DNA of 32,000 nucleotides from Candidatus Electrothrix yaqonensis (GCA_047651235.1 CP178758.1:2610001-2642000); one strand, 5' to 3'. Shown: positions 8,601 to 28,206, counted from the first letter of the stretch. The notes: generated by a model not told the origin, from the sequence alone. Made by a program: numbers and translations.

Positions 8601-8660
8601 AGGTAATCAGGGCATGGAGGTTCCGTGCTGGACGGCTTCGGCCTGATCGCCTTTGCCTCC

Positions 8661-9737
8661 TTACGCCATCGCCACATCCAGAATATCCACCAGCCTGCCG
8701 TTATAGTTATTGCGGATCATCTCCCAGAGTGCGGTATAATCATTCACCGTGATCTCCAGAGTACTCACGGCCGAGCCGGCAAAACCGGGGATAATGTATT
8801 CCCCGTTTCCGGTCACCGGGATTTCCGCGCCGGCCGCACCCTCCTCCTTCATATCGATGAGCGAGAAAAGCAGCTGCTCTCCCGGCAGATCCTGAATCAC
8901 CTGAATACGCAGGCGTTCGTCCGCCGTGAGCGTACCTGCATTGATCCCGACATGAGCCGTGGCCGCGCTGCCGGTCAGGATGCCGGTCTCAGGCGGTGTC
9001 GCTCCGCCCAGACCAGGCACTGCCAGCGGGGTGCGCAGTCTGCGCTGATAGGTGCCGCTGCGCTCTGTGCCGTGTTCCGTGTACTGGGTTGTTACCGTGA
9101 CCGTATACTCATTGTTCCACGGGTTGGCCTGGGCAGGAATATCAGGAACCACCAGAATCTCGCTGTTGGAAACCAGGGCGAAAGTGCTCTGCTTTGTCGC
9201 GCCGCTCTCCGTGCCTGTGATGGTGCAGCCGGAGTCCGGGTCGTCCTCCTCAAAGTCAAGGTTGCTGCCGGTAAGGTGCAGGACGCCGTTCGGATTGAGC
9301 ACGTCGGCCAGCTTGACTTTGGTGTCTTCCGCCGAGCTGATAAGGGGCTGCTTCTGGCTCATGGGCAGGCGGGTGAACCGGGCTACTGTGCGCAGGTTCT
9401 GCAGCAGATTCCGGGAGGCAAAGACGCCCACGCCCAGCAGATCATCACTGTCAGGCAGGGGGTCGTCCGGCGCGTTCAGGCGGCCGGTAAAGGAGGGCCG
9501 AAAGCGGAAGGCGTCCTTCAGGGTGACCTGATCGCCGTTGATCAGCCGCTGCAGTATCCACTCCATAATCAGGGGCGCAAGAGAACGGATCAGATCAGCG
9601 TTGTAGTTTGGATTGGCCGACGAAATATCCGTTGCCATCTCGTCGTAGCCTGCGGTGTTGCGCGGAACAAACAGGATGCGGTAGGACAGGGGTTTGGTAA
9701 GGGCATTGATGACCGGTCGCCACTGAATCGTTGCCAT
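8661..9737 (-). CDS. HU-like DNA-binding domain fused to an Ig-like DUF4469-type domain plus an extra C-terminal region
   Basis: The start MATIQWRPVINALTKPLSYRILFVPRNTAGYDEMATDIS...INGDQVTLKDAFRFRPSFTGRLNAPDDP fits the HU-fold module of this family. The stretch QPLISSAEDT...LNPNGVLHLTGSNLDFEEDDPDSGCTI...NSEILVVPDIP...NEYTVTVTTQY fits the Ig-like module. A GGAGAA SD sits upstream of ATG 9737. The family assignment is from memory (PF18291/PF14734-like) and was not searched. Confidence 0.6.
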   Translation of the reverse strand: MATIQWRPVINALTKPLSYRILFVPRNTAGYDEMATDISSANPNYNADLIRSLAPLIMEWILQRLINGDQVTLKDAFRFRPSFTGRLNAPDDPLPDSDDLLGVGVFASRNLLQNLRTVARFTRLPMSQKQPLISSAEDTKVKLADVLNPNGVLHLTGSNLDFEEDDPDSGCTITGTESGATKQSTFALVSNSEILVVPDIPAQANPWNNEYTVTVTTQYTEHGTERSGTYQRRLRTPLAVPGLGGATPPETGILTGSAATAHVGINAGTLTADERLRIQVIQDLPGEQLLFSLIDMKEEGAAGAEIPVTGNGEYIIPGFAGSAVSTLEITVNDYTALWEMIRNNYNGRLVDILDVAMA

Positions 9738-9885
9738 GACTTTTCTCCTCTGAAAATGGGCAGGTGAGAGAGTTGATATAATGGGGATAATTTGCAGATT
9801 AGGGCGATATGGCGGTTCTGTCAACGGAATTTTTCTTTTTCTCTGCTGAGCAACGGAAAAAGCCGGTACGTCAGTTCAGCAGGGG

Positions 9886-10171: not shown

Positions 10172-10363
10172 ATGCTTGACTGGCTCATACAGAACAAAAC
10201 ATGGCTTTTCAGCGGTATTGCCGTATCGGTTCCGATAGCGCTGATCGGGTGGTATCTTGCGAGGAAAAAAAGCGGTGGGAATATAACGCAGCGCACACGG
10301 GGAAAGAACAGCCCGGCTGTGAATGCCAATAATGGTAACGTGGATATTCACTATGGCGACTGA
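10172..10363 (+). CDS. Small membrane-anchored protein (63 aa), probably the detached N-terminus of the downstream TPR protein
   Basis: A GGGAGGA SD lies 8 nt before ATG 10172. The sequence MLDWLIQNKTWLFSGIAVSVPIALIGWYLARKK is a TM helix followed by a positive patch. The tail ITQRTRGKNSPAVNANNGNVDIHYG repeats a motif found at the start of the next ORF. Confidence 0.6.
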   Translation: MLDWLIQNKTWLFSGIAVSVPIALIGWYLARKKSGGNITQRTRGKNSPAVNANNGNVDIHYGD

Positions 10364-12326
10364 GAAAGGGTCAACAGCTGAAACGGCCGCTCAGGTTAAT
10401 CAGTCAACGAGCGGGGATAAATCGCCGGTAATCAATACTGATGGTGGTGATGCCACGGTCAATTACGGCCTGAAAAAAGAAGAATACCGGCAAATGCTCC
10501 AGGAAGAGCTGGCACGTTCACTCAAAGGGATGCAGGCTTCCGGACTTGCTGCTGAAGGACGTCAACTGCTGGAACAGCAGGTAAAGGCTGCCGAGGAAAA
10601 ACTGGCTAATCTTCAGCAGAGCTATGAAGAGGAGATCAAACGCCGCAGAAATGCGGTTGAGGCACTAGGAAAACTTCAGGGAAAGCTGCCCGAAGCCCGG
10701 ATTGCCGCAGCGCAAAAGAGTTTGGAGCAGGGCCATACCGAAGCGGCGGAGCAGATCTTTGATGAGGTGGTGGACAAGGAGGGCAGCTCCGTTGCCCTGG
10801 CTGCGTTTCAGAGCGGACAGCTTGCCGAAGGCCGTCTGGATTACGAAAAAGCCATGCGCCAGTACACAAAGGCGGTGGCTTTGGAAGAGGACAACCCGGA
10901 CTACCTGCTGGCTGCCGGTAAGATGGCCCGCACTGTTGCTGATTATGACCGGGCGCAGGAGTGGCTGGAACGGTTATTACAGATCAGGGAGGCGGAGAAG
11001 GAAGAGACCGTTGACCTTGCCATAGCTCAACACGAACTTGCTCTTTTATATAAATCGCAGGGCCGTTACGCGGAAGCGGAACCGCTCTATACACATGCTC
11101 TGGAAATTTATGAAAACTCCCTGGGCAAAGACCATCCTTCGGTCGCGGCCACACTGAACAATCTGGCGGCATTATATGAATCGCAGGGCCGTTACGCAGA
11201 AGCGGAACCGCTCTATACACGTGCTCTGGCGATCTGGGAGAAATCCCTGGGCAAAGACCATCCTGAGGTCGCGACCACACTGAACAATCTGGCTCTTTTA
11301 TATAAATCGCAGGGCCGTTACGCGGAAGCGGAACCGCTCTATACACGTGCTCTGGCGATCTGGGAGAAATCCCTGGGCAAAGACCATCCTTCGGTCGCGA
11401 CCACACTGAACAATCTGGGGTGGTTGTATTACTCGCAGGGCCGTTACGCGGAAGCGGAACCGCTCTATATACGTGCTCTTGCAATCTGGGAAGAATCTCT
11501 TGGAAAGGAACACCCGCATGTTGCGGCCACACTGAACAATCTGGCTTTTTTATATAAATCGCAGGGCCGTTACGAGGAAGCGGAACCGCTCTATATACGT
11601 GCTCTGGAGATCTCAGAGAAATCCCTGGGCAAGGACCATCCTTCGGTCGCGACCACACTGAACAATCTGGCGGGATTATATGAATCGCAGGACCGTTACG
11701 CGGAAGCGGAACCGCTCTATACACGTGCTCTTGCAATTTGGGAAGAATCTCTTGGAAAGGAACACCCGCATGTTGCGGCTGCTTTGAACAATCTGGCTGG
11801 ATTATATTACTCGCAGGGCCGTTACGCAGAAGCGGAACCGCTCTATACACGTGCTCTGGCGATCTCAGAGAAATCCCTGGGCAAAGACCATCCTGAGGTC
11901 GCGACCACACTGAACAATCTGGCGGAATTATACAGACAGCAGGGCCGTTACGCAGAAGCGGAACCGCTCTATACACGTGCGCTGAAGATTAAGGAGAAAT
12001 CCCTGGGCAAAGACCATCCTTCGGTCGCGACCACACTGAACAATCTGGCTCTTTTATATAAATCGCAGGGCCGTTACGCGGAAGCGGAACCGCTCTATAC
12101 ACGTGATCTGGCGATTTCAGAGAAATCCCTGGGCAAAGACCATCCTTCGGTCGCGGCCACACTGAACAATCTGGCGGCATTATATGAATCGCAGGGCCGT
12201 TACGCGGAAGCGGAACCGCTCTATACACGTGCTCTGGCGATCCTTCATGCCGCCTTTCCCAACGGGCATCCTGATATTGAAATACTCAAGAGCAACATCG
12301 ACGAATTGCAACGTAAGATGCACTGA
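10353..12326 (+). CDS. Tetratricopeptide repeat protein (kinesin-light-chain-type TPR, 10 units) with N-terminal coiled coil
   Basis: ATG 10353 overlaps the upstream ORF by 11 nt in another frame. There are ten 42-aa units: NLAxLYxSQGRYAEAEPLYxRALxIxEKSLGKDHPxVAxTL. The preceding region is a predicted coiled coil (LEQQVKAAEEKLANLQQSYEEEIKRRR). Confidence 0.85.
   Translation: MATEKGSTAETAAQVNQSTSGDKSPVINTDGGDATVNYGLKKEEYRQMLQEELARSLKGMQASGLAAEGRQLLEQQVKAAEEKLANLQQSYEEEIKRRRNAVEALGKLQGKLPEARIAAAQKSLEQGHTEAAEQIFDEVVDKEGSSVALAAFQSGQLAEGRLDYEKAMRQYTKAVALEEDNPDYLLAAGKMARTVADYDRAQEWLERLLQIREAEKEETVDLAIAQHELALLYKSQGRYAEAEPLYTHALEIYENSLGKDHPSVAATLNNLAALYESQGRYAEAEPLYTRALAIWEKSLGKDHPEVATTLNNLALLYKSQGRYAEAEPLYTRALAIWEKSLGKDHPSVATTLNNLGWLYYSQGRYAEAEPLYIRALAIWEESLGKEHPHVAATLNNLAFLYKSQGRYEEAEPLYIRALEISEKSLGKDHPSVATTLNNLAGLYESQDRYAEAEPLYTRALAIWEESLGKEHPHVAAALNNLAGLYYSQGRYAEAEPLYTRALAISEKSLGKDHPEVATTLNNLAELYRQQGRYAEAEPLYTRALKIKEKSLGKDHPSVATTLNNLALLYKSQGRYAEAEPLYTRDLAISEKSLGKDHPSVAATLNNLAALYESQGRYAEAEPLYTRALAILHAAFPNGHPDIEILKSNIDELQRKMH
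11010..12270 (+). repeat. Ten tandem 126-bp coding repeats (TPR units), many nearly identical at the DNA level
   Basis: The TCGCAGGGCCGTTACGC landmark recurs from 11055 and 11181 through to 12189, with a period of exactly 126 bp. Confidence 0.9.
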
Positions 12327-12341
12327 TGAACAGGGTGACCT

Positions 12342-13463
12342 CTATTTTCCCCCCTTTGCCGGAGCCCCCCAGGTATAGACAGCAGTGACCGCATAATTCC
12401 AGACAGAGCTCACTCCGATTCCGGCCAGAGCCGAGAGCATCCAGTTGGTCTGCTGTCGAAACAGCAGGGAGGCGATTCCCACATTGGCTGCCGCTCCCAT
12501 GCTGCAGACAAGCACAAAGGAGAGCCAGCCGGTAAGCAGGCGCCAGCCCTTGAGCTGAACATCACTGTAGGTAAAGAAGTTGTTCATCAGATAATTGGTG
12601 GTCATAGCCACCAGCGTGGCTGCAGTCTGCCCGTAGACAAACGGAGCATTGATGATGCGGAAGACCAGGAACAGTACCAGGAAATGAACAAGTACGCCGA
12701 TCCCTCCGACCAGGATAAAGGCGACAAAACGCACCGGTATAAAGCGGCCGATCCATTTGTCCAGCAGCAGCATAGCGAACTCCAGCAGAGCACGGCTGTC
12801 CAGTTTGCTTTCCCCGGCATGGCGCGTTCTGAAGGTATAGGGAAGCTCCTGGAAACGCATGGGTGTGGCAGAAGAGGCAAAGAGATCCAGCAGAATCTTA
12901 AAGCCGATGCCTGACAGATTGCGTACCCGCTGCATCAGGGCCTCCCGGCGGATCATAAAGAAACCGCTCATGGGGTCGGTCAGCTCAGTACGGGTGAAGT
13001 AACGGCTGATCCGGGTGGCAAGGCGGCTGTACGCTGCTCTTTTGGCATTCCAGCCGCCGATCCCGCCGCCGTCCGCATAGCGGCTGCCCACCACGACATC
13101 CAGCTGCTGACTGCGCAGAGCCTGCAGCATGTCAGGCAGCAGGCCCTCGTCGTGCTGCAGATCAGCATCCATCACAGCGAGATACGGGGCGGAAGAGGCA
13201 AGCATTCCCTCCACACAGGCCGAGGACAGGCCGCGCCGTCCTATCCGGTGAATCAGGCGGACCCGTGCATCCTGAAAGGCCATATCCGCAACCTGGCCGC
13301 TCGTGCTGTCCGGTGAGTCATCATCCACAAAAACCACCTCCCAACGGATTCCCTGCAGAACCCGCTCAAGGCGACCGACCAGTTCTTCCACATTATCCGC
13401 CTCATTGAAACAGGGCACCACGACAGAAAGCAGGGGGCCGGGGACAGGACGTTCTTTGTGCAT
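12342..13463 (-). CDS. GT2 polyprenol-phosphate glycosyltransferase (DPM1/ArnC-like) fused to a GtrA-like membrane domain
   Basis: The GT-A region reads LSVVVPCFNEADNV...VVFVDDDSPD...AVMDADLQHD...DPMSGFFMIRREAL. The C-terminal four-TM GtrA-like region reads FVAFILVGGIGVLVHF...NNFFTY...VWNYAVTAVYTW. Confidence 0.85.
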   Translation of the reverse strand: MHKERPVPGPLLSVVVPCFNEADNVEELVGRLERVLQGIRWEVVFVDDDSPDSTSGQVADMAFQDARVRLIHRIGRRGLSSACVEGMLASSAPYLAVMDADLQHDEGLLPDMLQALRSQQLDVVVGSRYADGGGIGGWNAKRAAYSRLATRISRYFTRTELTDPMSGFFMIRREALMQRVRNLSGIGFKILLDLFASSATPMRFQELPYTFRTRHAGESKLDSRALLEFAMLLLDKWIGRFIPVRFVAFILVGGIGVLVHFLVLFLVFRIINAPFVYGQTAATLVAMTTNYLMNNFFTYSDVQLKGWRLLTGWLSFVLVCSMGAAANVGIASLLFRQQTNWMLSALAGIGVSSVWNYAVTAVYTWGAPAKGGK

Positions 13464-13618
13464 AGATGATACAGCCGACGATATATAAGGAAAAAGGAAG
13501 AGGCTGAAAGGAAAAAAGCCGGGCAGGCAGAGGGCAGAATCAGAACAAATACTGCACTGTCCCGATCAAAAAGAAATGACCGGAACAATGCCTTTGAATA
13601 TGAATATCAGCGGAAACA

Positions 13619-14398
13619 CTAAAGGGGGTTGCCTTCACTCCTGAACCATCCATTCCAGGCAGTCCGGGGAGCATCGGCACACGGTGAAGTCCCGCACCGG
13701 TCTGTTGTCTTCCGGCAATGGTGCTCAACACCTCGCTGATAATCTACACCGCAGGTTTTGCAGCGAACCTTAGCGCAATCGCATGCAGTACCCTTTGCAT
13801 ACCGCGTACCGCAGGAGCTGCAGCGGGAGGAGATATCACACTGGTATCCGTATCTCGCCTGTCCCCTGTCGCAGGAGCTGCAGCGGACCGTATCGTATTG
13901 ATCCTGCCGTCTCTGTTTCCGCACTTTCTTGCACTTACTGCACTTATCACAGCGGCTCTTTCTGTAGTCACAGTTTGTTGCATACCGCGTACCGCAGGAG
14001 CTGCAGCGAGAGGAGATATCACTCTGGTATCCGTATCTCGCCTGTCCTCTGTCGCAGGTTCTGCAGCTGGTGCCTTTTGCGTACCGGTTACCGCAAAGTC
14101 TGCACCGCACTGTACTGGTGTATTCAGTCTTTGTCCTTGTCAGATCACAACGGTACCCGCAGGAGGATCTCTTATACTTTCTATACTTTTTGTCACAGCC
14201 GCACCGCCGGTCATACCGGCAATCTTTACTGCAGGTTCTGCATGGCTTCCGGCAGTTTGCCTTCCCGCATCGTGACAGATCGCACGAATAGCCGCACCGC
14301 ACCTGTTTCTGCTGATAACAGTCGTAGGAAAAAGCTGGCCCTACTGTGAACAGCATTGTCATGGTGATCAAAAAACTTGCCGCAAAAATCGCTTTCAT
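13619..14398 (-). CDS. Exported cysteine-rich basic repeat protein (259 aa), family unknown
   Basis: A GGGGAGGGAAGA SD abuts ATG 14398. The Sec-type leader is MKAIFAASFLITMTMLFTVGPAFS/YD. I count 34 Cys, mostly in CxxC(G/D) knuckles. There are internal protein repeats and an approximately 90-bp DNA direct repeat (13797-13886 vs 13980-14070). Confidence 0.7.
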   Translation of the reverse strand: MKAIFAASFLITMTMLFTVGPAFSYDCYQQKQVRCGYSCDLSRCGKANCRKPCRTCSKDCRYDRRCGCDKKYRKYKRSSCGYRCDLTRTKTEYTSTVRCRLCGNRYAKGTSCRTCDRGQARYGYQSDISSRCSSCGTRYATNCDYRKSRCDKCSKCKKVRKQRRQDQYDTVRCSSCDRGQARYGYQCDISSRCSSCGTRYAKGTACDCAKVRCKTCGVDYQRGVEHHCRKTTDRCGTSPCADAPRTAWNGWFRSEGNPL

Positions 14399-14464
14399 TC
14401 TTCCCTCCCCGCATTTTATTCATTGAACTTTAATTTGAACTGCAAACATATATTATTACACATA

Positions 14465-14500: not shown

Positions 14501-14750
14501 CGTGCAGGATAAAAAATATGTAATATCAATATATTCTGTGTTGCAGAAAAATATATCCCTTTCTGTTGCCGCAATGGAGATAATCCCGCGCCGAAAGCAG
14601 GCCCCGGGATCTCAATTCACTTGCGCAGTTTTTCTGTTCTTAGTAGAAAACAGAGGTTGTCTGCGGTCGGGCCTGTTCCCGCCTCTGTCGGGGGCGAAGA
14701 TCAGCTCCGACGTTCTGCTGCAATACTCTGTCCTCTGTCTCCGTCACTGC

Positions 14751-16727
14751 ATGAAACTGAAACCATTCAGCGAGAATACTCTGCTTTGCCTTACTTCCCG
14801 GCTTGACCGGGAGGATAATTTTGTTTTTCTGGAAAGTTCCAGGTTGAGCGAAGAAAATCATCATTCTCTGCTGTTTACCCGACCGTCCTCGTACCTGTAC
14901 TGTCTGCCGGGAGATTCCGCGATAAAATTTCTGGACCGGGCAGACCATCTTCGGGACCAAGGGATGTTTCTTGCCGGATGGCTGGCCTACGAGTTCGGCT
15001 ACCTGCTGGAACCCCGCCTGCACCATTTTCTTGCCCGCAATCGCAATGCCGCATCCGCACCTGCAGAGCAACCGCTGGCCGTACTTGGGGTCTATGATAA
15101 TCCTGTTGTGTTCAATCACAAAACCGGGCAGTTCAGTAGCGGTTCCGGCTGGCCGGAAGGAGAAGCGGAACAGACTGCCTGCACCTGTACCGACCTGAAT
15201 ACAAGCATCTCCGAGCGGGAGTATCTGCAGGCCGTCCGGGCCGTTCAGGAGTATATTCTGGCCGGAGACACGTATCAGGTCAACTTCACCCTGCATGTTG
15301 ATTTCCATTTCCAGGGCTCGATAGCGGCTCTGTACCGCACCCTGCGCCGGAATCAATCCGTCGGCTATAGCGCCTGGATACGCCATAACGGCCGCGATGT
15401 CCTGAGCTTTTCACCGGAGCTGTTTTTTGCAGCCAACGCAGAGCGCGTCCGCGTCAGGCCCATGAAAGGAACCATGTCCAGGGGCAGAACCAATGCGGAA
15501 GACAAAGAGCAGCAGGAAAAACTGCGTTCAGACCCCAAAAACCGGAGCGAAAACGTGATGATCGTTGACCTGCTCCGTAATGATATCGGGCGGCTGCTGT
15601 ATGAGGGAGGGGGCGGCACGGTTGTTCCACGATCGCTTTTTGATGTGGAGACATACGAATCGCTGCTCCAGATGACCTCCGCTGTGGACGGCATTCCCGA
15701 ATGTATTTCTGAACATATACCGGGAAATAATCAGGATAAATCGGACAGCTCAAACTCTCCGCTGTCCTTCAGACGGCTTGTCGAAACCCTGTTCCCCTGC
15801 GGCTCTGTCACCGGTGCCCCGAAAATCCGGACTATGGAGATTATTCACGAACTGGAGCAGCAGCCCAGGGGCGTGTACTGCGGGGCAATCGGCTACACAA
15901 GCCGGGAAAAAAGCTACTTCAATGTCCCCATCCGCACCCTGGAGCTGCACAACGGCCAAGGCAGGATGGGGGTCGGGTCCGGTATTGTGGCGGATTCCGT
16001 GCCTGAGGCGGAATGGGAGGAATGCCTGCTCAAAGGCAATTTTCTCACCAGCAGCGAACCTGATTTCCAGCTCATCGAAACCATGCTCTGGCGACCGGAT
16101 CAGGGCTTTTTCCTGCTGGACTATCACCTCGAACGTCTGCAGGACTCTGCCGCCTATTTCCATTTTTTCTGTGAGCCGGATGCAATCCGTCTGCATCTGG
16201 AACAGAAGGTGCAAAAGCTCAAGGGAGATCAGGGAGAGCAGCAGCAATGGCGCATCCGCCTGCTCCTGCACCGGGACGGCAGGATAGAAACAAGTGCGGT
16301 GCCGCTCCCCTCCCCTGCCCCAGTCTCCGGCAAAGTCATTTTTTCTGAACACCAAGTGGATGCGGCCTCCCCTCACCGGTTTCATAAAACAACCCGGCGC
16401 GAGCTGTACAACCGGGAATACGCCGCAGCAGCGGAACAGGAATATTTTGATATTCTGTTCACCAATACCGAGGGGCAGGTCACCGAGGGCGCTGTCTCCA
16501 ATATTTTCGTTGCCCGGCAGGACGATGATGTATTGCTGACCCCGCCGGTCAGCTGCGGCCTTCTGGCCGGAACCTACCGCCGTATGCTGCTTGAACAGGG
16601 CAAAGCAATCGAACAGGCGCTGACGGTTGAAGATGTGCTGCAGGCACACCGCCTCTATGCGGCCAACTCAGTGCGTGGTCTTGTCCGGGTATATCCGGAG
16701 CAAAATTCTGTAAATTCCGCGCAGTGA
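14751..16727 (+). CDS. pabB: Fused aminodeoxychorismate synthase component I / aminodeoxychorismate lyase (PabB-PabC)
   Basis: Chorismate-binding motifs are SPELFF, RPMKGT, DPKNRSENVMIVDLLRND and LFPCGSVTGAPKIRTMEII...RGVYCGAIGY. A C-terminal class-IV aminotransferase-like domain follows (FQLIETMLW...LLDYHLERL...TEGAVSNIF...GLLAGTYR). The start at MKLKPFSEN was chosen from family N-termini and is uncertain, since there is no clear SD. The track ORF begins at 14502. Confidence 0.8.
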   Translation: MKLKPFSENTLLCLTSRLDREDNFVFLESSRLSEENHHSLLFTRPSSYLYCLPGDSAIKFLDRADHLRDQGMFLAGWLAYEFGYLLEPRLHHFLARNRNAASAPAEQPLAVLGVYDNPVVFNHKTGQFSSGSGWPEGEAEQTACTCTDLNTSISEREYLQAVRAVQEYILAGDTYQVNFTLHVDFHFQGSIAALYRTLRRNQSVGYSAWIRHNGRDVLSFSPELFFAANAERVRVRPMKGTMSRGRTNAEDKEQQEKLRSDPKNRSENVMIVDLLRNDIGRLLYEGGGGTVVPRSLFDVETYESLLQMTSAVDGIPECISEHIPGNNQDKSDSSNSPLSFRRLVETLFPCGSVTGAPKIRTMEIIHELEQQPRGVYCGAIGYTSREKSYFNVPIRTLELHNGQGRMGVGSGIVADSVPEAEWEECLLKGNFLTSSEPDFQLIETMLWRPDQGFFLLDYHLERLQDSAAYFHFFCEPDAIRLHLEQKVQKLKGDQGEQQQWRIRLLLHRDGRIETSAVPLPSPAPVSGKVIFSEHQVDAASPHRFHKTTRRELYNREYAAAAEQEYFDILFTNTEGQVTEGAVSNIFVARQDDDVLLTPPVSCGLLAGTYRRMLLEQGKAIEQALTVEDVLQAHRLYAANSVRGLVRVYPEQNSVNSAQ

Positions 16728-20666: not shown

Positions 20667-23600
20667 ATGAAATTTACGCAAAAAATAACGCCACGTACAG
20701 CTCTCCTGATCGCAGTCGGTATTCTGGTATATATTGCTCTTGCAGGCTATCATGGCAGCATAAAGAAACAACATGACCTCCAAAAAGAGGAAATACAGCA
20801 GCAACAGCAGCAGGAAAAAATGACCCGGCTGCAGCAGGAGGTGGATGCCTATAAACAGAAAATTGCCGAAGTACGGGATAATGAGCGCCATCTGCGCTCA
20901 GAACTGACCATGCTGCAGGAGGAGGCGACAGAAAATACCGAGGCTCAGGCTCAACAGGCGGAGACCGGAGAGCAGCGCGATACAGTTGCTCAGGAGCAGC
21001 TCATCAATGCCGAGAAAAAAATCAGAGAGCTGCAGGAACAGCTGAACAAAGCAGAAGAGAGGCACGCTGCGCAGCGTGCTGAGCAAAACTCTGCAACCGG
21101 ACGTCTTCAGGAAAAATTACAGGCACAGAAGAAGGAACTTCAACAGCAGCAAAAAGAACTGGCGGAAATAGAGCAGCGCAACCAGCTTGCCCGGGAAACA
21201 TGGAAGAAAGAAGAACAGGAACTTGCACAATTAAAAGAGGTGATCCAACAGAAGAACAAACTGCTCACCCAGGCTCAGCAGGAACGCAACAAGACAATTC
21301 AGACAATACAGAAGCTGGAACATTCGGAACAAAAATATAGCGAAAAGCTGAAAGAAGCAATGCAGCGTATTGCTGACGCTGATAAACGTGCCGCTCTTGC
21401 TGAAAAACATATTGTTGAGCTGACAGCTGATCTGGAGCAGACCACTGCCCGGCTTGCCGAGGCAACCACCGAAGTTTCGGTGATGCAAGAGAAGGCCCGG
21501 AAGGCTGAGCTCAAAATGGAAGCCATGCTGCAGTACGGCAAAGAAAAAGACCGGATGCTCGCTCCGGCTGAACAGAAAGCCGCAACCTTGGAAAAACAGC
21601 TCAGCGCACAGCAGGAGCAGGTCAAACAGCTTACAGCCCAGCTCACTGCAGCCCGAAAAGAACTGCGGGCTGCCCTCGACGAACGACATGCCCTGACAGC
21701 CAAAATCAAGAATCTGAATAAAACCGGTACAGCGCAACAAAACAAAATTTCCGCACTGACCGAAAAACTGAAAAAGGCTGTTCAGCAACAGGAGCAAAAG
21801 AAGGCGACCCTGGAGCAGGTGCAGGCTCAGCTGGCCCAAACCACGCAGCAGCTTGATAAAGTCAGCGCGGAACGGCAGCAGCTCAAAGAGAACGTCGCGC
21901 ACTTTATGAAAAAACTGCAGACTGCCGTCAAGGAGCAGGAGCAGAAAAAGGCGGCCCTGGAGCAGGTGCGGGCTCAGCTGGCCCAGACCACGCAGCAGCT
22001 TGATAAAGCCAGCGCGGAACGGCAGCAGTTCAAAGAGAACGTCGCGCACCTTATGGAAAAACTGCAGACTGCCGCCAAGGAGCAGGAGCAAAAGAAGGCG
22101 GCCCTGGAGCAGGTGCAGGCTCAGCTGGCCCAAACCACGCAGCAGCTTGATAAAATCAGCGCAGAACGGCAGCAGCTCAAAAATGAGACAGAAAAACTCT
22201 CCGTCCTGATTGCGGAAAAAGGAACCAGGATGGGAGAACAGGAAAGGCTCTACAGTAACGCGGCAGAAAAAATTAAAACACTGGAAGATTCTCTGAAAAA
22301 AGCCGGGCTCAAAATAGAGGCCCTGCTGCAGTACGGCAAAGAGAAAGAGCGCATGCTGGCGCCCTCGCAACAGCAGATTGCTGCCCTGCAGGACCAGCTC
22401 AGAAAAAAAGAGGAACAGCTCGCAGCAGCAGAACAGAAACTTACTGAGGCGAGAGCAAACGGCAAAGATCTGGTCAATCAGGTTACAAGCCTGACTGAAT
22501 CTGCCGCTGTACGGGATCAGGAAGCTGAAGAACTCTACAAGGAACTTGACGAATCGGCTGCGAATGTTACCCGGCTCGAGCAGGAACTCGCTGAAACGAA
22601 AACAGCTCTGGAAACTGCTCAGGGCGAGCTTGCCGCTGTCCGGGAACAGGCGCAATTGCTGGAGCAGCAACTGCAGGGCAAGGACGAAGAACTGACAGTC
22701 GTCAGAGCTGAAAACGAAAAATTTGCCGTAGAAATTGCAGAAAAGGCGGCTCTGAACGAAGAGCTGCAGAAGAAACAGGAGGCCTTGGCCGCAGAACTTG
22801 AAGCGGCAAAGAAACAACAGGCAGAAGCTGCTGAGCAGCTCAAGGCAAAGATCGAGAAACTGAATGCAGCAACGGCAGCCGTCGAAGAGGCGAAGAATGC
22901 AGCGGCAGCGGCGCAGGAAAAAATAATATCCTTGGCAGGACAGATTGAGGAGGAAAAGTCCGCACTTGCAGCTTCACAGGAGGAGGCAACTGCTCTGAAA
23001 GCACAGGTTGCTGACCTTCTTCCGGTACAGGAACAGATGCAGAAGGCAAAGGAACAGGTGGAAATGCTGGAAGCCGAGCTGGAGAATGCCCGGAACCTGA
23101 AAGAACAGCTGGTAACGGTACAGGAAAAGGCCGCAGCTCAGGAAAAACAGCTTGCCGATCTGCAGGCAGAAGCACAGCAGCTTACCGCAGCTCAGGAGCA
23201 GATTGCAGCCCTGAAAAAAGAACTGGACGAAGTCCGTGCACAGGCGGACCAGAAAGCCGCGGAACAGGAAAAACAACTTGCTGAACTGCAGGCAGAAGCA
23301 GAACAGCTTGCTGCGGAACAGGAAAAAACAGCAGCGCTGCAGGCCCAGTTGACCGAACTGCAGGGTAAAGCAGAGCAGGTTACTGCAGCTCAGGAACAAG
23401 TTGCAGCCCTAAAAAAGGAACTGAGCGAAGCCAGTACACAGGCTGAGCAGCTCAACGCTGAACAGGAAGAGGCTGCTGCGTTGCAATCCCAGGTTGCCGA
23501 ACTGGAAAAAAATACTCAGCAGCTTGCCGAAGCCAAAGAGAAAATTACTGCTTTGGAAGAAAAGCTGCAGGCGGCACAGGCGAAAGCAGATGAACTCGCT

Positions 23601-24443
23601 GCGGCTGCAGAGCAGAAAGATTCCTTGGCAAAACAGCTTGAGCTGGTGCAGATGAATCTGCAGGCACGACAGAAAAAGTATGCTGAATTGAAAATAAAAC
23701 TGCAGGAGAAAAAAGCTGCAGTGCAGCGGCTGCAAGAAGAGGCGGCTGGCAAAGCAGCTTCTCTTGAAGAAAAACTGAAGCCCCTGGAAAAAGAGCTTCA
23801 GACCACAAAGGCTGAACTGGCGGAGAAAGCTGAAGCAGTTGCTCAGGCGGAGAAACAGCTGCAGGAGCAGAACGGAGCCTCTGCAGAAACCGATGAACTG
23901 CGCAAAAACGCTGAACAGCTGACTGAAGAACTTACAGCCGTCAAAGAGGAACTGATTACTCTGCAGGAGAAGAATGCTGAATTACAGGAGGAGATCGACC
24001 GGCTGAAGGAGCAGCTGAACCAGCAGCAAAATCAGAATGTTCAGCAGGATGTCCGGCAGGAAGCCACCCTTGATGCTGACCAGGACGGTGAAGTGGACAG
24101 CACCATTGTCCTCTCCGGTGTTAACTTCACCCTTGGTACGGCCGAACTGACTAAACAGGCTGTCACTTCCTTGAAAACAACAGCCTCTCTGATCAAACAG
24201 CATGCACCTGATCAACGGTTTGAAGTTGCAGGCTATACGGACAGTCAGGGGAGTCCGGAGAGAAATCAGAAAATCTCAGAACAACGGGCCAATACTGTCC
24301 GTGATTTTCTGATCAACGAAGGCATACCAAAGAAACTGCTGATCAGCAAAGGGTATGGGCAGGAAAATCCCATTGCGGATAACAGCACCCGGGAGGGACG
24401 GGCCAGGAACCGTCGGGTTGAGCTGCATCAGATCACAGATTAA
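20667..24443 (+). CDS. Membrane-anchored giant coiled-coil protein with C-terminal OmpA-like peptidoglycan-binding domain (1258 aa)
   Basis: The N-terminus MKFTQKITPRTALLIAVGILVYIALAGY is a signal-anchor. About 1100 residues rich in Q/E/A/K/L with heptad character follow. The C-terminus VNFTLGTAELT...FEVAGYTDSQGSPERNQKISEQRANTVRDFL...GYGQENPIADNSTREGRARNRRVEL is an OmpA_C-like domain. Confidence 0.85.
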   Translation: MKFTQKITPRTALLIAVGILVYIALAGYHGSIKKQHDLQKEEIQQQQQQEKMTRLQQEVDAYKQKIAEVRDNERHLRSELTMLQEEATENTEAQAQQAETGEQRDTVAQEQLINAEKKIRELQEQLNKAEERHAAQRAEQNSATGRLQEKLQAQKKELQQQQKELAEIEQRNQLARETWKKEEQELAQLKEVIQQKNKLLTQAQQERNKTIQTIQKLEHSEQKYSEKLKEAMQRIADADKRAALAEKHIVELTADLEQTTARLAEATTEVSVMQEKARKAELKMEAMLQYGKEKDRMLAPAEQKAATLEKQLSAQQEQVKQLTAQLTAARKELRAALDERHALTAKIKNLNKTGTAQQNKISALTEKLKKAVQQQEQKKATLEQVQAQLAQTTQQLDKVSAERQQLKENVAHFMKKLQTAVKEQEQKKAALEQVRAQLAQTTQQLDKASAERQQFKENVAHLMEKLQTAAKEQEQKKAALEQVQAQLAQTTQQLDKISAERQQLKNETEKLSVLIAEKGTRMGEQERLYSNAAEKIKTLEDSLKKAGLKIEALLQYGKEKERMLAPSQQQIAALQDQLRKKEEQLAAAEQKLTEARANGKDLVNQVTSLTESAAVRDQEAEELYKELDESAANVTRLEQELAETKTALETAQGELAAVREQAQLLEQQLQGKDEELTVVRAENEKFAVEIAEKAALNEELQKKQEALAAELEAAKKQQAEAAEQLKAKIEKLNAATAAVEEAKNAAAAAQEKIISLAGQIEEEKSALAASQEEATALKAQVADLLPVQEQMQKAKEQVEMLEAELENARNLKEQLVTVQEKAAAQEKQLADLQAEAQQLTAAQEQIAALKKELDEVRAQADQKAAEQEKQLAELQAEAEQLAAEQEKTAALQAQLTELQGKAEQVTAAQEQVAALKKELSEASTQAEQLNAEQEEAAALQSQVAELEKNTQQLAEAKEKITALEEKLQAAQAKADELAAAAEQKDSLAKQLELVQMNLQARQKKYAELKIKLQEKKAAVQRLQEEAAGKAASLEEKLKPLEKELQTTKAELAEKAEAVAQAEKQLQEQNGASAETDELRKNAEQLTEELTAVKEELITLQEKNAELQEEIDRLKEQLNQQQNQNVQQDVRQEATLDADQDGEVDSTIVLSGVNFTLGTAELTKQAVTSLKTTASLIKQHAPDQRFEVAGYTDSQGSPERNQKISEQRANTVRDFLINEGIPKKLLISKGYGQENPIADNSTREGRARNRRVELHQITD
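21768..22185 (+). repeat. Three tandem 147-bp (49-aa) coding repeats inside the coiled-coil gene
   Basis: Units start at 21768, 21915 and 22062, an exact 147-bp period. The unit is LQTAxKEQEQKKAALEQVxAQLAQTTQQLDKxSAERQQxKENVAHxMxK. Confidence 0.85.
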
Positions 24444-24807: not shown

Positions 24808-25518
24808 TCAATGCAGTTTTCTCTGCAGCACCCAGTTGTTCTGACGGGAAAAAATGTAGCTTCCGTCCTTCTTGAACATTGCAATATCTTTATCGTTGAT
24901 TGCGATAAGCAAGCCTTCATGCAAAATATTGCCATCTTTATCTCGAATGACGGAACAGATATCCAATTCTGTTTTCTGATCAGCGGAGCAACCGTTTTGT
25001 TTGAATAGAGTAATCTTTTTTTCGGCTATTTTCTGCCCTGCTGAATGAGCCACGAAAGAGGGAGACCACCAGAATACGGTTGTGCCCACTAACAACAACA
25101 GTAAAATCGGTGAAGAAAGTAATGCTATGCCACTTATTACGATAGACTTTTCTACGCGATTTCTATCTTTCTTTTTTAACCACCAGAAAGCTCCTGCAAT
25201 AAAGCATAAATCTAACAGAATAGTAAGTACAAACCAAGGGTTTATCTGTCTGATAGGTTCAGACATAGACAGCAGGCTGGACAGCAAGTTGATCAAAATA
25301 TGCGGAACAGCATGATAGGCGTTAATATAAATATATTGGGTTGATATGGGAAAAATATCTGAATCAATACCGAATGTACTCAGATATCCCTGATAAAAAC
25401 TGATTCCCAGCAGATAAGCGACTGCCGGAATAAAGGCAATAATCGCCGCACCGATTAACTGGATACGGACACTTTTTTTGTCGCCGGTATCCTGATTCTG
25501 ATCTTGGTCATTACTCAT
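24808..25518 (-). CDS. Hypothetical integral membrane protein (236 aa), AT-rich gene
   Basis: There are four to five hydrophobic segments (LIGAAIIAFIPAVAYLL, VPHILINLLSSLL, WFVLTILLDLCFIAGAFWW, ISGIALLSSPILLLLLVGTTVFWW) and then a soluble C-terminal ~90 aa. Its ATG overlaps the ispG stop as ATGA. No family is recognised. Confidence 0.6.
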   Translation of the reverse strand: MSNDQDQNQDTGDKKSVRIQLIGAAIIAFIPAVAYLLGISFYQGYLSTFGIDSDIFPISTQYIYINAYHAVPHILINLLSSLLSMSEPIRQINPWFVLTILLDLCFIAGAFWWLKKKDRNRVEKSIVISGIALLSSPILLLLLVGTTVFWWSPSFVAHSAGQKIAEKKITLFKQNGCSADQKTELDICSVIRDKDGNILHEGLLIAINDKDIAMFKKDGSYIFSRQNNWVLQRKLH

Positions 25519-27305: not shown

Positions 27306-27397
27306 TTCATCTGCTGTTCATCTTGTCTCGGTAGAATAAAAGAAAGATCAGGTATGGCTATGTACAATTTTATTCATCCCAACTAAAGGAGGATACC

Positions 27398-27991
27398 ATG
27401 AACAAGTTCTACGAAAGCTCCCCAAAACCTGCTGGCAAAACCATGATGAACCGTGCGCTGTTTGCCCTGGCAGCAATGCTGATCTGTCTGTTCTGGGCAG
27501 GCGCAGCCCAGGCAAGCAGAGATGAAGGGTATGAACGGTACAGAGAGGAAAGCAAGATTTATGGTACAATCGACAGCATGCCTACTTCCGGCTTCAACGG
27601 TACATGGGTTATCAGCGGCCGTGAGGTTGAGGTCACGGACAGAACCCGGATCAAAGAAAAATACGGTCGGGCCGCAACCGGAGGATATGTGGAAGTCGAA
27701 GGATTCCGGGACGGCAATAAACTCACTGCGCATGAGATTGAGGTAAAACGCAGCAGAGAGTATCGTTCCGGTCGCGAAAAAATTAAACTGTACGGAAACA
27801 TCGAGACTCTGCCCAAGGAAGGCCTGAACGGTGTATGGCGGATCAACGGCCGGGAGGTGACTGTTGATCGAAATACACGCATCAAGGAGGAATACGGCAG
27901 AGTTGCGGTCGGTGCCTATGCTGAGGTGGAAGGCAGCCCTTCCGGCAACACCATTGCAGCCTATGAGATCGAGATCAAAAACAGAAGGTAA
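27398..27991 (+). CDS. Exported protein with two DUF5666-like beta domains (paralogue 1)
   Basis: An AAGGAGG SD is present. The leader is NRALFALAAMLICLFWAGAAQA. There are two copies of the module YG.I...P..G.NG.W.I.GREV.V...TRIKE.YGR...G.Y.EVEG....N...A.EIE.K. The family name is from memory. Confidence 0.75.
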   Translation: MNKFYESSPKPAGKTMMNRALFALAAMLICLFWAGAAQASRDEGYERYREESKIYGTIDSMPTSGFNGTWVISGREVEVTDRTRIKEKYGRAATGGYVEVEGFRDGNKLTAHEIEVKRSREYRSGREKIKLYGNIETLPKEGLNGVWRINGREVTVDRNTRIKEEYGRVAVGAYAEVEGSPSGNTIAAYEIEIKNRR

Positions 27992-28018
27992 ACAGGGCTG
28001 CACATAATGCAGGATGCA

Positions 28019-28067
28019 AGGGTGTGCGGACAGGTCAGCTACTCTGCACACCCTGTCCTGTTTTTTT
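28019..28067 (+). terminator. Intrinsic terminator after paralogue 1
   Basis: Either AGGGTGTGC...GCACACCCT (28019-27 / 28046-54) or the alternative GGACAGG...CCTGTCC (28028-34 / 28052-58) can form, followed by T7 (28061-28067). Confidence 0.65.
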
Positions 28068-28206
28068 CCTGTTGCTTTCAAAAAGGAAAAAGCCCGGTAA
28101 GCAACGGGCAGTCCGGGCCCGGACCGGGTTGACCTGCGGCACCTGCATGTATCGTTTTTCGACGATAAAACAAAATTTGCTCATCCCAATCTAAAAATAA
28201 GGAACC

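Follow-up and report, generated by a model that had tools for sequence, protein, structure and literature searches.

In zinc-ribbon and rubredoxin knuckles, a CxxC pair is followed by Gly at the turn of a beta-hairpin, and the second ligand pair (HxC or CxC) comes 9 residues further on. Four Cys/His ligands are found per ~20 residues without a hydrophobic core, and Cys and His interchange at a ligand position. The known zinc-ribbon examples are cytoplasmic or nuclear. A high Cys content is also found in SmtA/BmtA and Csp1, where Cys, sometimes together with His, hold several thiophilic metal ions. SmtA/BmtA are cytoplasmic proteins of about 55 amino acids (aa) with a single Zn4 cluster, and Csp1, which serves copper storage in methanotrophs, is an exported Cys-lined metal store, a four-helix bundle exported through the twin-arginine (Tat) pathway. 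Precedents for disulfide-cross-linked envelopes are provided by chlamydial OmcA/OmcB and by the Cys-rich sheath material of Leptothrix and Sphaerotilus, in which exported Cys-rich material stiffens an envelope or sheath through disulfides; OmcB is also basic. Here, we describe a gene on the minus strand of a 32,000-nucleotide stretch of the Candidatus Electrothrix yaqonensis genome (GCA_047651235.1 CP178758.1:2610001-2642000; hereafter the window, with positions counted from its first base). Its product, a Cys-rich protein predicted to be exported, belongs to a family organized around a 20-residue unit that resembles zinc-ribbon and rubredoxin knuckles in all the features named above, whereas the Sec-type leader sets the window protein apart from the known zinc-ribbon examples.

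Strain YB6 is the marine cable bacterium Ca. Electrothrix yaqonensis. It branches early within Electrothrix and shows unusually wide ridges, abundant extracellular sheaths, long-range conduction and nickel bis(dithiolene) (NiBiD) (PMC12093952). In the window, the protein encoded next to the Cys-rich gene, a GT2 glycosyltransferase fused to a GtrA-like membrane domain (GT2-GtrA), shares 100% identity with one from Candidatus Electrothrix sp. YB6, and IspG is 86–89% identical to homologues from Candidatus Electronema, Candidatus Electrothrix and Desulfobulbaceae metagenome-assembled genomes (MAGs). Cable bacteria carry current over centimeters via periplasmic fibers with a sulfur-ligated nickel framework. 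No periplasmic protein that binds metal has so far been tied to it, and for the proteins that build, anchor or feed this framework the family presented here is a concrete and testable candidate class. The family is new and restricted to one lineage, and we regard it as an exported version of a metal-knuckle module whose type is already familiar.

The Cysteine-Rich Gene and Its Predicted Product

The Cys-rich open reading frame (ORF; Table 1) is a real gene under purifying selection. Its orthologues on two metagenome contigs (L001 and L002, from JGI samples 3300036163 and 3300035610) encode 271 and 268 aa when read from the true ATG and are 85% and ~76% identical to the window protein, respectively. 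The first 43 residues are identical in all three proteins, and the ATG of the L002 orthologue is preceded by an identical Shine-Dalgarno sequence. The ratio of nonsynonymous to synonymous substitution rates (dN/dS; Nei-Gojobori) against L001 and L002 was 0.29–0.40 overall and 0.04–0.08 over the first 45 codons. Two long antisense ORFs (13718–14275 and 13783–14349) overlap the gene and were rejected as true genes, since these dN/dS values indicate that selection acts on the minus-strand frame. That the gene is a fortuitous ORF, or a pseudogene decaying within repeat-rich sequence, is scarcely credible. The absence of the protein from the public collection for YB6 and strain GW3-4, the antisense ORFs and the degenerate repeat units of the YB6 lineage (see below) could be taken that way; yet dN/dS lies well below 1 in the minus-strand frame, indels between orthologues are in frame, the Shine-Dalgarno sequence is strong, the leader, the C-terminus and the terminator hairpin are conserved, and about 25 independent genomes or metagenomes carry an unbroken ORF.

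Gene callers systematically overlook or garble members of this family. A collection of 5.8 billion proteins holds no entry identical to the window protein although it holds one for the GT2-GtrA neighbor from the same genome, and the Cys-rich gene is therefore apparently unannotated in public records. The orthologue of strain GW3-4 (L085:3230-3877) is uncalled in the NCBI record. Among the JGI calls, the intact L002 orthologue (L002:36-842) is split and that of L001 is truncated at an internal Met. Proteomic and comparative screens would have missed these proteins as long as the family is unannotated, and the ORF and its orthologues belong in the protein databases used for cable bacteria.

All 34 Cys of the window protein are located in the 235-aa mature part (14.5%). 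With 13.1% Cys over its full length, the ORF is the richest in Cys among the window ORFs of at least 80 aa, the next reaching no more than 9.6%. The protein further contains 35 Arg, 20 Lys, 18 Tyr and only 2 His, and the mature part contains 22 Ser and 18 Thr, with an isoelectric point (pI) of 9.4 and a grand average of hydropathy (GRAVY) of -1.19. The CxxC motifs are CRTCS, CRLCG, CRTCD, CSSCG (twice), CDKCSKC, CSSCD and CKTCG. Export through a Sec-type leader is predicted from the Lys at position 2, the hydrophobic stretch of 17 residues (3–19) and the A-F-S that precedes Tyr25. The leader ends in ...GPAFS-YDC, which places the first Cys 3 residues past the predicted cut, and it contains neither a lipobox ([LVI][ASTVI][GAS]C) nor a twin-arginine motif; a bacterial lipoprotein was rejected on the former ground. 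No further hydrophobic segment was found in the mature part, where the top 19-aa hydropathy is 0.03.

A preliminary description of the window, made from the sequence alone, had already called this gene and is borne out by the dN/dS of 0.29–0.40 and the about 25 homologues. Its ORF, ribosome-binding site and leader correspond to the 259-aa ATG ORF, to GGGGAGGGAAGA abutting the ATG and to a Sec-type leader that proved to be conserved. The composition count returned the same 34 Cys and the same CxxC motifs, and the pI, the GRAVY and the lack of a second hydrophobic segment agree with the basic protein with almost no hydrophobic core that had been described. A multihaem c-type cytochrome, which that description had also discounted, was rejected because CxxCH is absent from the whole protein and no cytochrome Pfam family matched.

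Table 1. Features of the Cys-rich gene, its product and the adjacent GT2-GtrA gene in the window.
Feature	Position	Strand	Description	Basis
Coding sequence of the exported (predicted) Cys-rich knuckle-repeat protein	13619..14398	minus	ATG start, 259 aa + stop	ORF list
Shine-Dalgarno region GGGGAGGGAAGA	14399..14410	minus	Abuts the ATG; GGAGG core 5 nt upstream	
Sec-type signal peptide (predicted), residues 1-24, MKAIFAASFLITMTMLFTVGPAFS	14327..14398	minus	Predicted cut before YDCY	Hydropathy and -3/-1 rule (script), family conservation
N-terminal Cys-rich region of the mature protein, residues 25-80	14159..14326	minus	11 Cys; length varies among orthologues; AlphaFold confidence (pLDDT) <50	Alignments, AlphaFold
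Conserved core, residues 81-115	14054..14158	minus	(G/S)Y(R/Q)C..T.T.KTE..T(T)V(R/Q)C.LCG.RY.KG; hairpin and first knuckle	
Copy 1 of the 90-nt duplicated module, residues ~111-140, CRTCDRGQARYGYQSDISSRCSSCGTRYA	13978..14067	minus	Direct repeat family D1	
Copy 2 of the 90-nt duplicated module, residues ~172-201, CSSCDRGQARYGYQCDISSRCSSCGTRYA	13795..13884	minus		Direct repeat and alignment
Unit with Cys replacing His, residues 191-210, SRCSSCGTRYAKGTACDCAK	13769..13828	minus	C193, C196, C206, C208	Aligns with the CCHC units of relatives
Sole canonical 20-residue CCHC unit, residues 211-230, VRCKTCGVDYQRGVEHHCRK	13709..13768	minus	C213, C216, H226, C228	Weight matrix
Conserved C-terminal motif DAPRTAWNGWFRSEGNPL	13622..13675	minus	Family consensus TxWHxWF(K)NQ; modeled as an amphipathic helix in a relative	
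Terminator-like hairpin between the Cys-rich and GT2-GtrA genes	13554..13591	minus	15-bp stem and T-rich tract	Terminator scan
GT2 glycosyltransferase fused to GtrA-like membrane domain	12342..13463	minus		Pfam Glycos_transf_2 5e-33, GtrA_DPMS_TM 1.7e-17

The gene contains a direct DNA repeat of 90 nt whose copies are spaced by 183 nt (61 codons), as had been noted in the preliminary description, and are 94% identical. The duplicated module reads CDRGQARYGYQxDISSRCSSCGTRYA. The 61-codon duplication is present in L001 and missing from L002. Because the independent metagenome contig L001 shares it, the repeat is a lineage-specific duplication, and an assembly artefact, a concern raised in the same description, was rejected.

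A Family Seen in Candidatus Electrothrix

Conventional searches revealed little. In Pfam, the window protein matched only RH_dom, with 20.4 bits where the cut-off is 28.1, and in NCBIfam only LRP1_Cterm (E 0.48; 10.4 bits against a cut-off of 36.4); its relatives gave matches at E ≥ 0.088, or none. A single-sequence search of PDB sequences with the window protein found no match, and one of the 5.8-billion-protein collection found only two near-orthologues. Scanning the genome collection with N-terminal peptide patterns yielded no relative. With a profile of the YB6 clade, a HMMER scan of 1.84 billion cluster representatives added only three proteins, namely the distant relative P0003 (E 5.5e-11), P0004 (see below) and P0005, a spurious Cys-rich eukaryote-like sequence. 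P0003 is the E. aestuarii protein, and its gene lies directly upstream of a GT2-GtrA gene 81% identical to that of the window.

The family was found by following the GT2-GtrA orthologues through synteny into closed Electrothrix genomes, followed by a search with a mixed alignment. At the GT2-GtrA locus, orthologues are encoded in E. laxa (240 aa), strain GW3-4 (215 aa, not called as a gene), E. aestuarii (224 aa, identical with P0003), E. gigas (234 aa) and the metagenome contig L088 (222 aa). The search with six aligned sequences then retrieved 24 proteins of 150–259 aa, of which all species-named ones are from Electrothrix (laxa, ATG2, EH2), and the metagenome scan contributed two loci only. 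No Electronema protein was matched in the profile search of the 5.8-billion collection or in the HMMER scan of the 1.84 billion representatives, an absence that is not proof since the gene is often uncalled. Upstream of the closest non-Electrothrix GT2-GtrA gene (L090, 66% identical), no Cys-rich gene was found. Judged from these searches, the family is uncurated and has been seen so far only in Candidatus Electrothrix.

The preliminary description had assigned the protein to no family that it recognized. That holds for curated families, as no confident match to a characterized one was found in Pfam, NCBIfam, PDB sequences or Foldseek; the protein is nevertheless no orphan, having about 25 homologues of 205–271 aa, of which all that bear a name are from Electrothrix. 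No mention of the family was found in the searchable literature. The public record of the E. laxa homologue P0126 carries the label 'TNFR-Cys domain-containing protein', which appears to be a pattern-level false positive. The TNFR cysteine-rich domain shares only a high Cys density with the family, and this assignment was rejected because neither the window protein nor P0126 has a corresponding Pfam or NCBIfam match.

The 20-Residue Unit

Family members share a common anatomy. The leader follows the pattern MK(S/A)IF...AGTA(L/F)S and is succeeded by YDCY in 21/21 full-length relatives. Next comes a Pro/Cys-rich region of variable length, then the core Y-Q-C-x-T-T-x-T-x-K-T-E-x-x-T-T-V-Q-C-x-L-C-G-x-R-Y-x-K-G-V-x-H-Y-C, and then two to four further tandem units of 20 residues, which gives 3–5 units in all. 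A second Cys-rich stretch (QDCSQGDCF...) and the C-terminal T-x-W-H-x-W-F complete the protein. From 71 units the consensus VQCRTCGQHHPQGVEHRCGE was derived, with Gly following CxxC in 66 of them; VQCRTCGVHHPQGMRHRCGE is a 20-mer of single-unit length. The pattern VQC[RK]xCGxx[HY]Px[GD][VM]xH[RYH]CGx corresponds to Cys-x2-Cys-Gly-x8-His-x-Cys, or Cys-x2-Cys-x9-His-x-Cys when the Gly is counted among the spacer residues. All family members are basic (pI 8.8–9.6), with 21–35 Cys, 2–22 His and 5–22 Tyr, and those poor in His are rich in Tyr. The latter subtype comprises YB6, E. gigas, P0143, P0144 and P0146.

The window protein, with little His but much Cys, Tyr and Arg, is by its sequence a divergent subtype of this family. 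Its residues 82–109 match the core pattern. In an alignment of 25 sequences, C99 and C102 are invariant and Y82, C84, T96 and G103 are at least 90% conserved. The first knuckle of the YB6 core, C99-x2-C102-x9-C112-x2-C115, is fused through a deletion. Two further units are recognizable. Residues 211–230 score 48.6 with a position weight matrix built from the 71 family units, against 1.4 for the best of 500 shuffles, and residues 191–210 (CSSCGTRYAKGTACDC) have Cys at the His position, giving the ligand pattern CCCC. Beyond these, the other units are degenerate. At the C-terminus, RTAWNGWF (residues 245–252) carries T246, W248, W251 and F252, each at least 90% conserved. With only 2 His in the YB6 protein, the defining His of the unit is almost absent there and could not be seen from this sequence alone. 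The nested modules noted in the preliminary description do exist as sequences, but they are derivatives of the YB6 lineage together with the recent duplication and are not the basic unit.

In 72 aligned units, 57 have the ligand pattern CCHC and 2 have CCCC, in which Cys takes the place of His (YB6 and L001). Ligands appear to be lost together: 59 units are intact, 4 have lost one ligand and 9 have lost two or three, against 2.4 expected under independence, a count that is uncorrected for relatedness and rests on aligning the YB6 clade with canonical units, which is uncertain for the central part of the protein. In degenerate units the lost His is almost always replaced by Tyr. The mature Cys count is odd in 14/24 full-length members, which makes obligate pairing of every Cys unlikely. 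Across the family, a single transition (CAY or TGY to TAY) accounts for each His-to-Tyr and Cys-to-Tyr swap. Tyr in the swapped positions may be functionally tolerated, for example as a ligand or in a cross-link, or may simply be the cheapest mutation.

The same 20-residue unit was observed in P0004 (L087:631-2892, ENA ERZ27257340), an unrelated exported protein of 753 aa. It has six tandem CxxCGxQYxxGTxHxC units, followed by a Pro/Thr-rich linker and a large domain without a Pfam match. These copies suggest that the unit is an extracytoplasmic module rather than a product of chance, and that it may occur beyond Electrothrix.

Predicted Structure

AlphaFold2 was run with the family alignment on the window protein and on the canonical member P0128. 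In both models, a short beta-hairpin is formed around each CxxC with a period of 20 residues, and a helix lies at the C-terminus. The predicted local distance difference test (pLDDT) score is 81–89 at window residues 190–235 and up to 92 in the units of P0128. In the window model, strands 190–192/199–201 and 210–212/219–221 flank the CxxC motifs, and the core is modeled as strands 82–89 and 92–99 (pLDDT about 76). The helix of P0128 spans residues 244–255 (pLDDT 72–79).

The top neighbors in Foldseek and in a PDB profile search, all non-significant (the profile search reached a best E of 0.017), are almost all Zn-binding modules, including tandem arrays of them. They comprise RBR/IBR domains, the Cep104 zinc-finger array, the Rpa12/Rpb9 ribbons, rubredoxin, LysW and the TRIM5 and TRAF6 RINGs, beside the sub-threshold RH_dom of Pfam. 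The modeled unit is thus knuckle-like, with two ligand pairs on beta-hairpins, yet no membership in a curated family could be demonstrated for the protein. Its C-x2-C-x9-H-x-C spacing and its V-Q, [HY]-P and G positions match no zinc-finger model of Pfam or NCBIfam. A DnaJ-type CxxCxGxG zinc finger was rejected, as the motif here is CxxCGxx[HY]P and no Pfam match was obtained.

Possible Functions of the Family

We tentatively propose, with slightly less than even confidence, that the family forms a periplasmic or envelope array of zinc-ribbon-like metal knuckles with a structural or metal-buffering role. Metal binding, the identity of the metal, the location after export and the physiological role are all matters that we infer. 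Each 20-residue unit would be a small beta-hairpin knuckle around one divalent metal ion, most simply Zn(II), with Fe, Ni, Co or Cu as other candidates. Like zinc ribbons and rubredoxin knuckles, it would hold the ion through two ligand pairs, Cys-x2-Cys and His-x-Cys, and the mature protein would resemble beads on a string without a hydrophobic core. The early-branching YB6 lineage may have remodeled most units through replacement of His by Cys or Tyr, internal deletions and the 61-codon duplication; the 34 Cys and 2 His of YB6 could still furnish up to ~9 four-ligand sites, or metallothionein-like thiolate clusters. Such a protein might serve as a metal-stabilized structural or scaffolding component of the envelope, its positive charge suiting acidic envelope polysaccharide. 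Alternatively, it might act as a periplasmic buffer for thiophilic (sulfur-seeking) metals.

The idea of metal knuckles was already raised in the preliminary description and has gained support from the Cys-x2-Cys-Gly...His-x-Cys unit of the relatives and from the AlphaFold hairpins. Metal knuckles fit better than a pure disulfide scaffold, given that His is regularly spaced, Gly follows CxxC, Cys stands in for His in some units, ligands decay in concert and hairpins are predicted; a scaffold of disulfides only would have no use for a His regularly spaced beside Cys in every unit. If the proposal is true, an extracytoplasmic zinc-ribbon-like array would be an unusual way to fold a core-less protein outside the cytoplasm, and a periplasmic buffer for thiophilic metals might operate in sulfidic, metal-mobilizing sediments apart from conduction. 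The novel claim that the family is the first Sec-exported metallothionein-like metal buffer in bacteria, built of zinc-ribbon-type knuckles, we consider rather unlikely. Unlike SmtA/BmtA and Csp1, with which it shares the high Cys content, the window protein has 235 aa in its mature form, is basic and predicted to be Sec-exported, and is predicted to consist of beta-hairpin repeats. A bacterial metallothionein in the known sense was rejected on the grounds of the length of the mature protein, the signal peptide and the lack of a metallothionein Pfam match at E ≤ 1.

Several observations weigh against metal knuckles. Oxidation to disulfides is the usual fate of Cys pairs in the periplasm, and Zn sites with Cys ligands are seldom found outside the cytoplasm. 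The window protein itself holds just one CCHC and one CCCC unit, its other Cys being irregular, and many Cys swap with Tyr between close orthologues: this is the case in 7/9 Cys columns that vary without gaps among the window, L001 and L002 proteins. The change of His to Tyr in degenerate units looks more like relaxed constraint than like conservation of the sites, and the excess of concerted losses carries the relatedness and alignment caveats given with the count. The models are of low overall confidence, with a mean pLDDT of 54.9 for the window protein and 60.6 for P0128 and a predicted template modeling (pTM) score of 0.25–0.27, and the N-terminal Cys-rich third is unmodeled. Foldseek found no PDB match at E ≤ 0.001 (best E 0.023). 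Moreover, a terminator-like hairpin between the two genes makes co-transcription with GT2-GtrA doubtful.

The main alternative, possible though less likely, is a disulfide-cross-linked structural (glyco)protein of the cable-bacterium envelope or extracellular sheath. Its Cys would form intra- and intermolecular disulfides leading to a detergent-resistant lattice, its basic charge would bind acidic polysaccharide, and GT2-GtrA would provide the polyprenyl-phosphate sugar with which the Ser/Thr-rich protein, or an associated polysaccharide, is glycosylated in the periplasm. The predicted export, the 14.5% Cys, the pI of 9.4, the absence of a hydrophobic core and the 22 Ser and 18 Thr would all suit such a protein, and its pairing with GT2-GtrA is kept in at least five Electrothrix lineages despite different flanks. 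Envelope and polysaccharide genes are located nearby in the wider window (asparagine synthase, ABC exporter, GT1 and AMP-binding enzyme). Like typical structural surface proteins, the family evolves fast, varies in repeat number and tolerates Cys/Tyr swaps. In the published description of the cable-bacterium fiber sheath, protein lies on a layer that is rich in polysaccharide and contains acidic sugars (PMC8238962), and the reading fits both this layer under the fibers and the abundant sheaths and unusually wide ridges of YB6 (PMC12093952). However, it leaves unexplained the invariantly spaced His (57/72 units) and the His-to-Cys swap at a ligand position. The odd Cys count in 14/24 members also speaks against it, although intermolecular bonds could absorb an odd Cys. 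The Gly that follows CxxC and the protein hairpin around each such motif are hallmarks of knuckles, and the terminator-like hairpin separating the two genes is as awkward here. OmcA/OmcB and the sheath materials, too, differ from the window protein, which resembles them in neither sequence nor domains, matches no Pfam family of theirs at E ≤ 1, has a several-fold higher Cys density and belongs to a family whose repeat combines a conserved His with knuckle signatures. In composition only, the mussel foot protein Mfp-6 resembles the YB6 subtype in being basic, with much Cys, Tyr, Lys and Arg and few hydrophobic residues; unlike the window protein it is eukaryotic, ~100 aa long and based on 3,4-dihydroxyphenylalanine (DOPA) chemistry, it lacks a CxxC...HxC repeat, and there is no homology. 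Metal knuckles and disulfide cross-links are not mutually exclusive.

More remote from the data are a direct role in conduction and a role in antagonism. As a component or assembly factor of the conductive periplasmic fibers, the protein would hand over nickel in the periplasm, or anchor or cap NiBiD oligomers via Cys thiolates or S-S bonds. In favor of such a role, the source is a cable bacterium, and YB6 is conductive and has NiBiD (PMC12093952). No periplasmic protein that binds Ni and might account for the fibers emerged from comparative genomics (PMC11976967), a survey of Ni homeostasis makes no mention of such a protein (PMC11247825), and a 2026 structural paper models the ends of NiBiD oligomers as S-S cross-linked to cysteine residues (PMC13534509). 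A predicted exported family rich in Cys and His, the preferred Ni ligands, would fit both the missing candidate and the Cys-linked ends, and, being missing from the public annotation of at least two genomes, it could have been overlooked by earlier screens. We nevertheless judge this role improbable. The family was undetected outside Electrothrix in the profile search and the HMMER scan, whereas the conduction machinery is common to Electrothrix and Electronema; it evolves fast, its Cys positions are poorly conserved, and its units decay in YB6 and E. gigas, both conductive cable bacteria. Ni transport or cofactor genes are not linked in any locus examined, and fiber Ni is reported to be dithiolene-ligated rather than Cys/His-ligated (PMC13534509). 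That the family is the missing periplasmic protein partner of cable-bacterial nickel/sulfur conduction, overlooked because it was unannotated, is a long shot to the same degree. Still less probable is a secreted cationic, Cys-rich antimicrobial or toxin-like product of the defensin or bacteriocin type, or its precursor. A cationic and Cys-rich composition, secretion, fast evolution and variable repeat number are shared with such products, but a mature protein of 235 aa far exceeds known Cys-stabilized antimicrobial peptides, and no immunity, maturation or export genes lie nearby at the loci examined. A context of the PADLOC or PHROG type was not seen either, neither library having been searched. 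The gene is single-copy, chromosomal and syntenic throughout the genus, and the protein has a conserved C-terminal helix and a metal-type unit. Metal knuckles or a structural role in the envelope are favored over an antimicrobial one.

Genomic Context

The Cys-rich gene is located directly upstream of and co-oriented with GT2-GtrA in the window and in L001, L083/L086, L084, L085, L088 and L091. The GT2-GtrA architecture (DPMS, GtrB, ArnC-type) makes polyprenyl-phosphate sugars for glycosylation on the periplasmic side. GT2-GtrA is the only neighbor common to all loci, which cover E. laxa, GW3-4, E. aestuarii, E. gigas and the metagenome. Upstream, YB6 has a divergently oriented PabB-aminotransferase IV fusion where other species have TSCPD and GGDEF/EAL genes, and downstream of the gene pair the flank is different in every genome. 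The survival of the pair through several rearrangements of both flanks hints at a functional link.

The hairpin between the two genes (Table 1) is likely an intrinsic terminator, or else a regulatory element ahead of GT2-GtrA. It recurs as a long hairpin in L001 and L002, where base changes preserve pairing, and in other species hairpins with T-rich tails occur at the same intergenic place. A scan upstream of the Cys-rich gene revealed no sigma-70-like promoter, and an Rfam search of the window gave no match.

The closest non-Electrothrix relatives of the Electrothrix GT2-GtrA proteins, 60–66% identical, are named Chromatiaceae, Roseateles and Rhodoferax and not Desulfobulbaceae, which hints at horizontal acquisition. 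No Electronema-named orthologue of GT2-GtrA was present among the best 120 matches.

Other Observations in the Window

Three ORFs of 232–380 aa were without a Pfam match, at E ≤ 1 for 8625–9767 (plus strand) and at E ≤ 1e-5 for 24808–25518 and 27383–28081 (both minus). The first of them comes after the run of envelope and polysaccharide genes mentioned above. A large ORF of 1258 aa (20667–24443, plus) has a C-terminal OmpA peptidoglycan-binding domain as its sole recognizable domain, and its ~1150 N-terminal residues have no Pfam match.

Upstream of the Cys-rich gene, the ORF 14502–16727 (plus) encodes aminodeoxychorismate synthase (PabB) fused to a class IV aminotransferase (PabC-like). In the listed GTG ORF, the N-terminal ~110 residues resemble neither PabB nor the aminotransferase, and therefore its true start probably lies further downstream. 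A later start would widen the intergenic region shared with the Cys-rich gene.

On the other side, convergent with GT2-GtrA, the ORF 10323–12326 (plus) encodes a 667-aa protein with ~10 nearly identical 42-residue TPR_12/TPR_10 (NPHP3-like) repeats. Because these repeats are highly similar, they have probably been expanded or homogenized recently.

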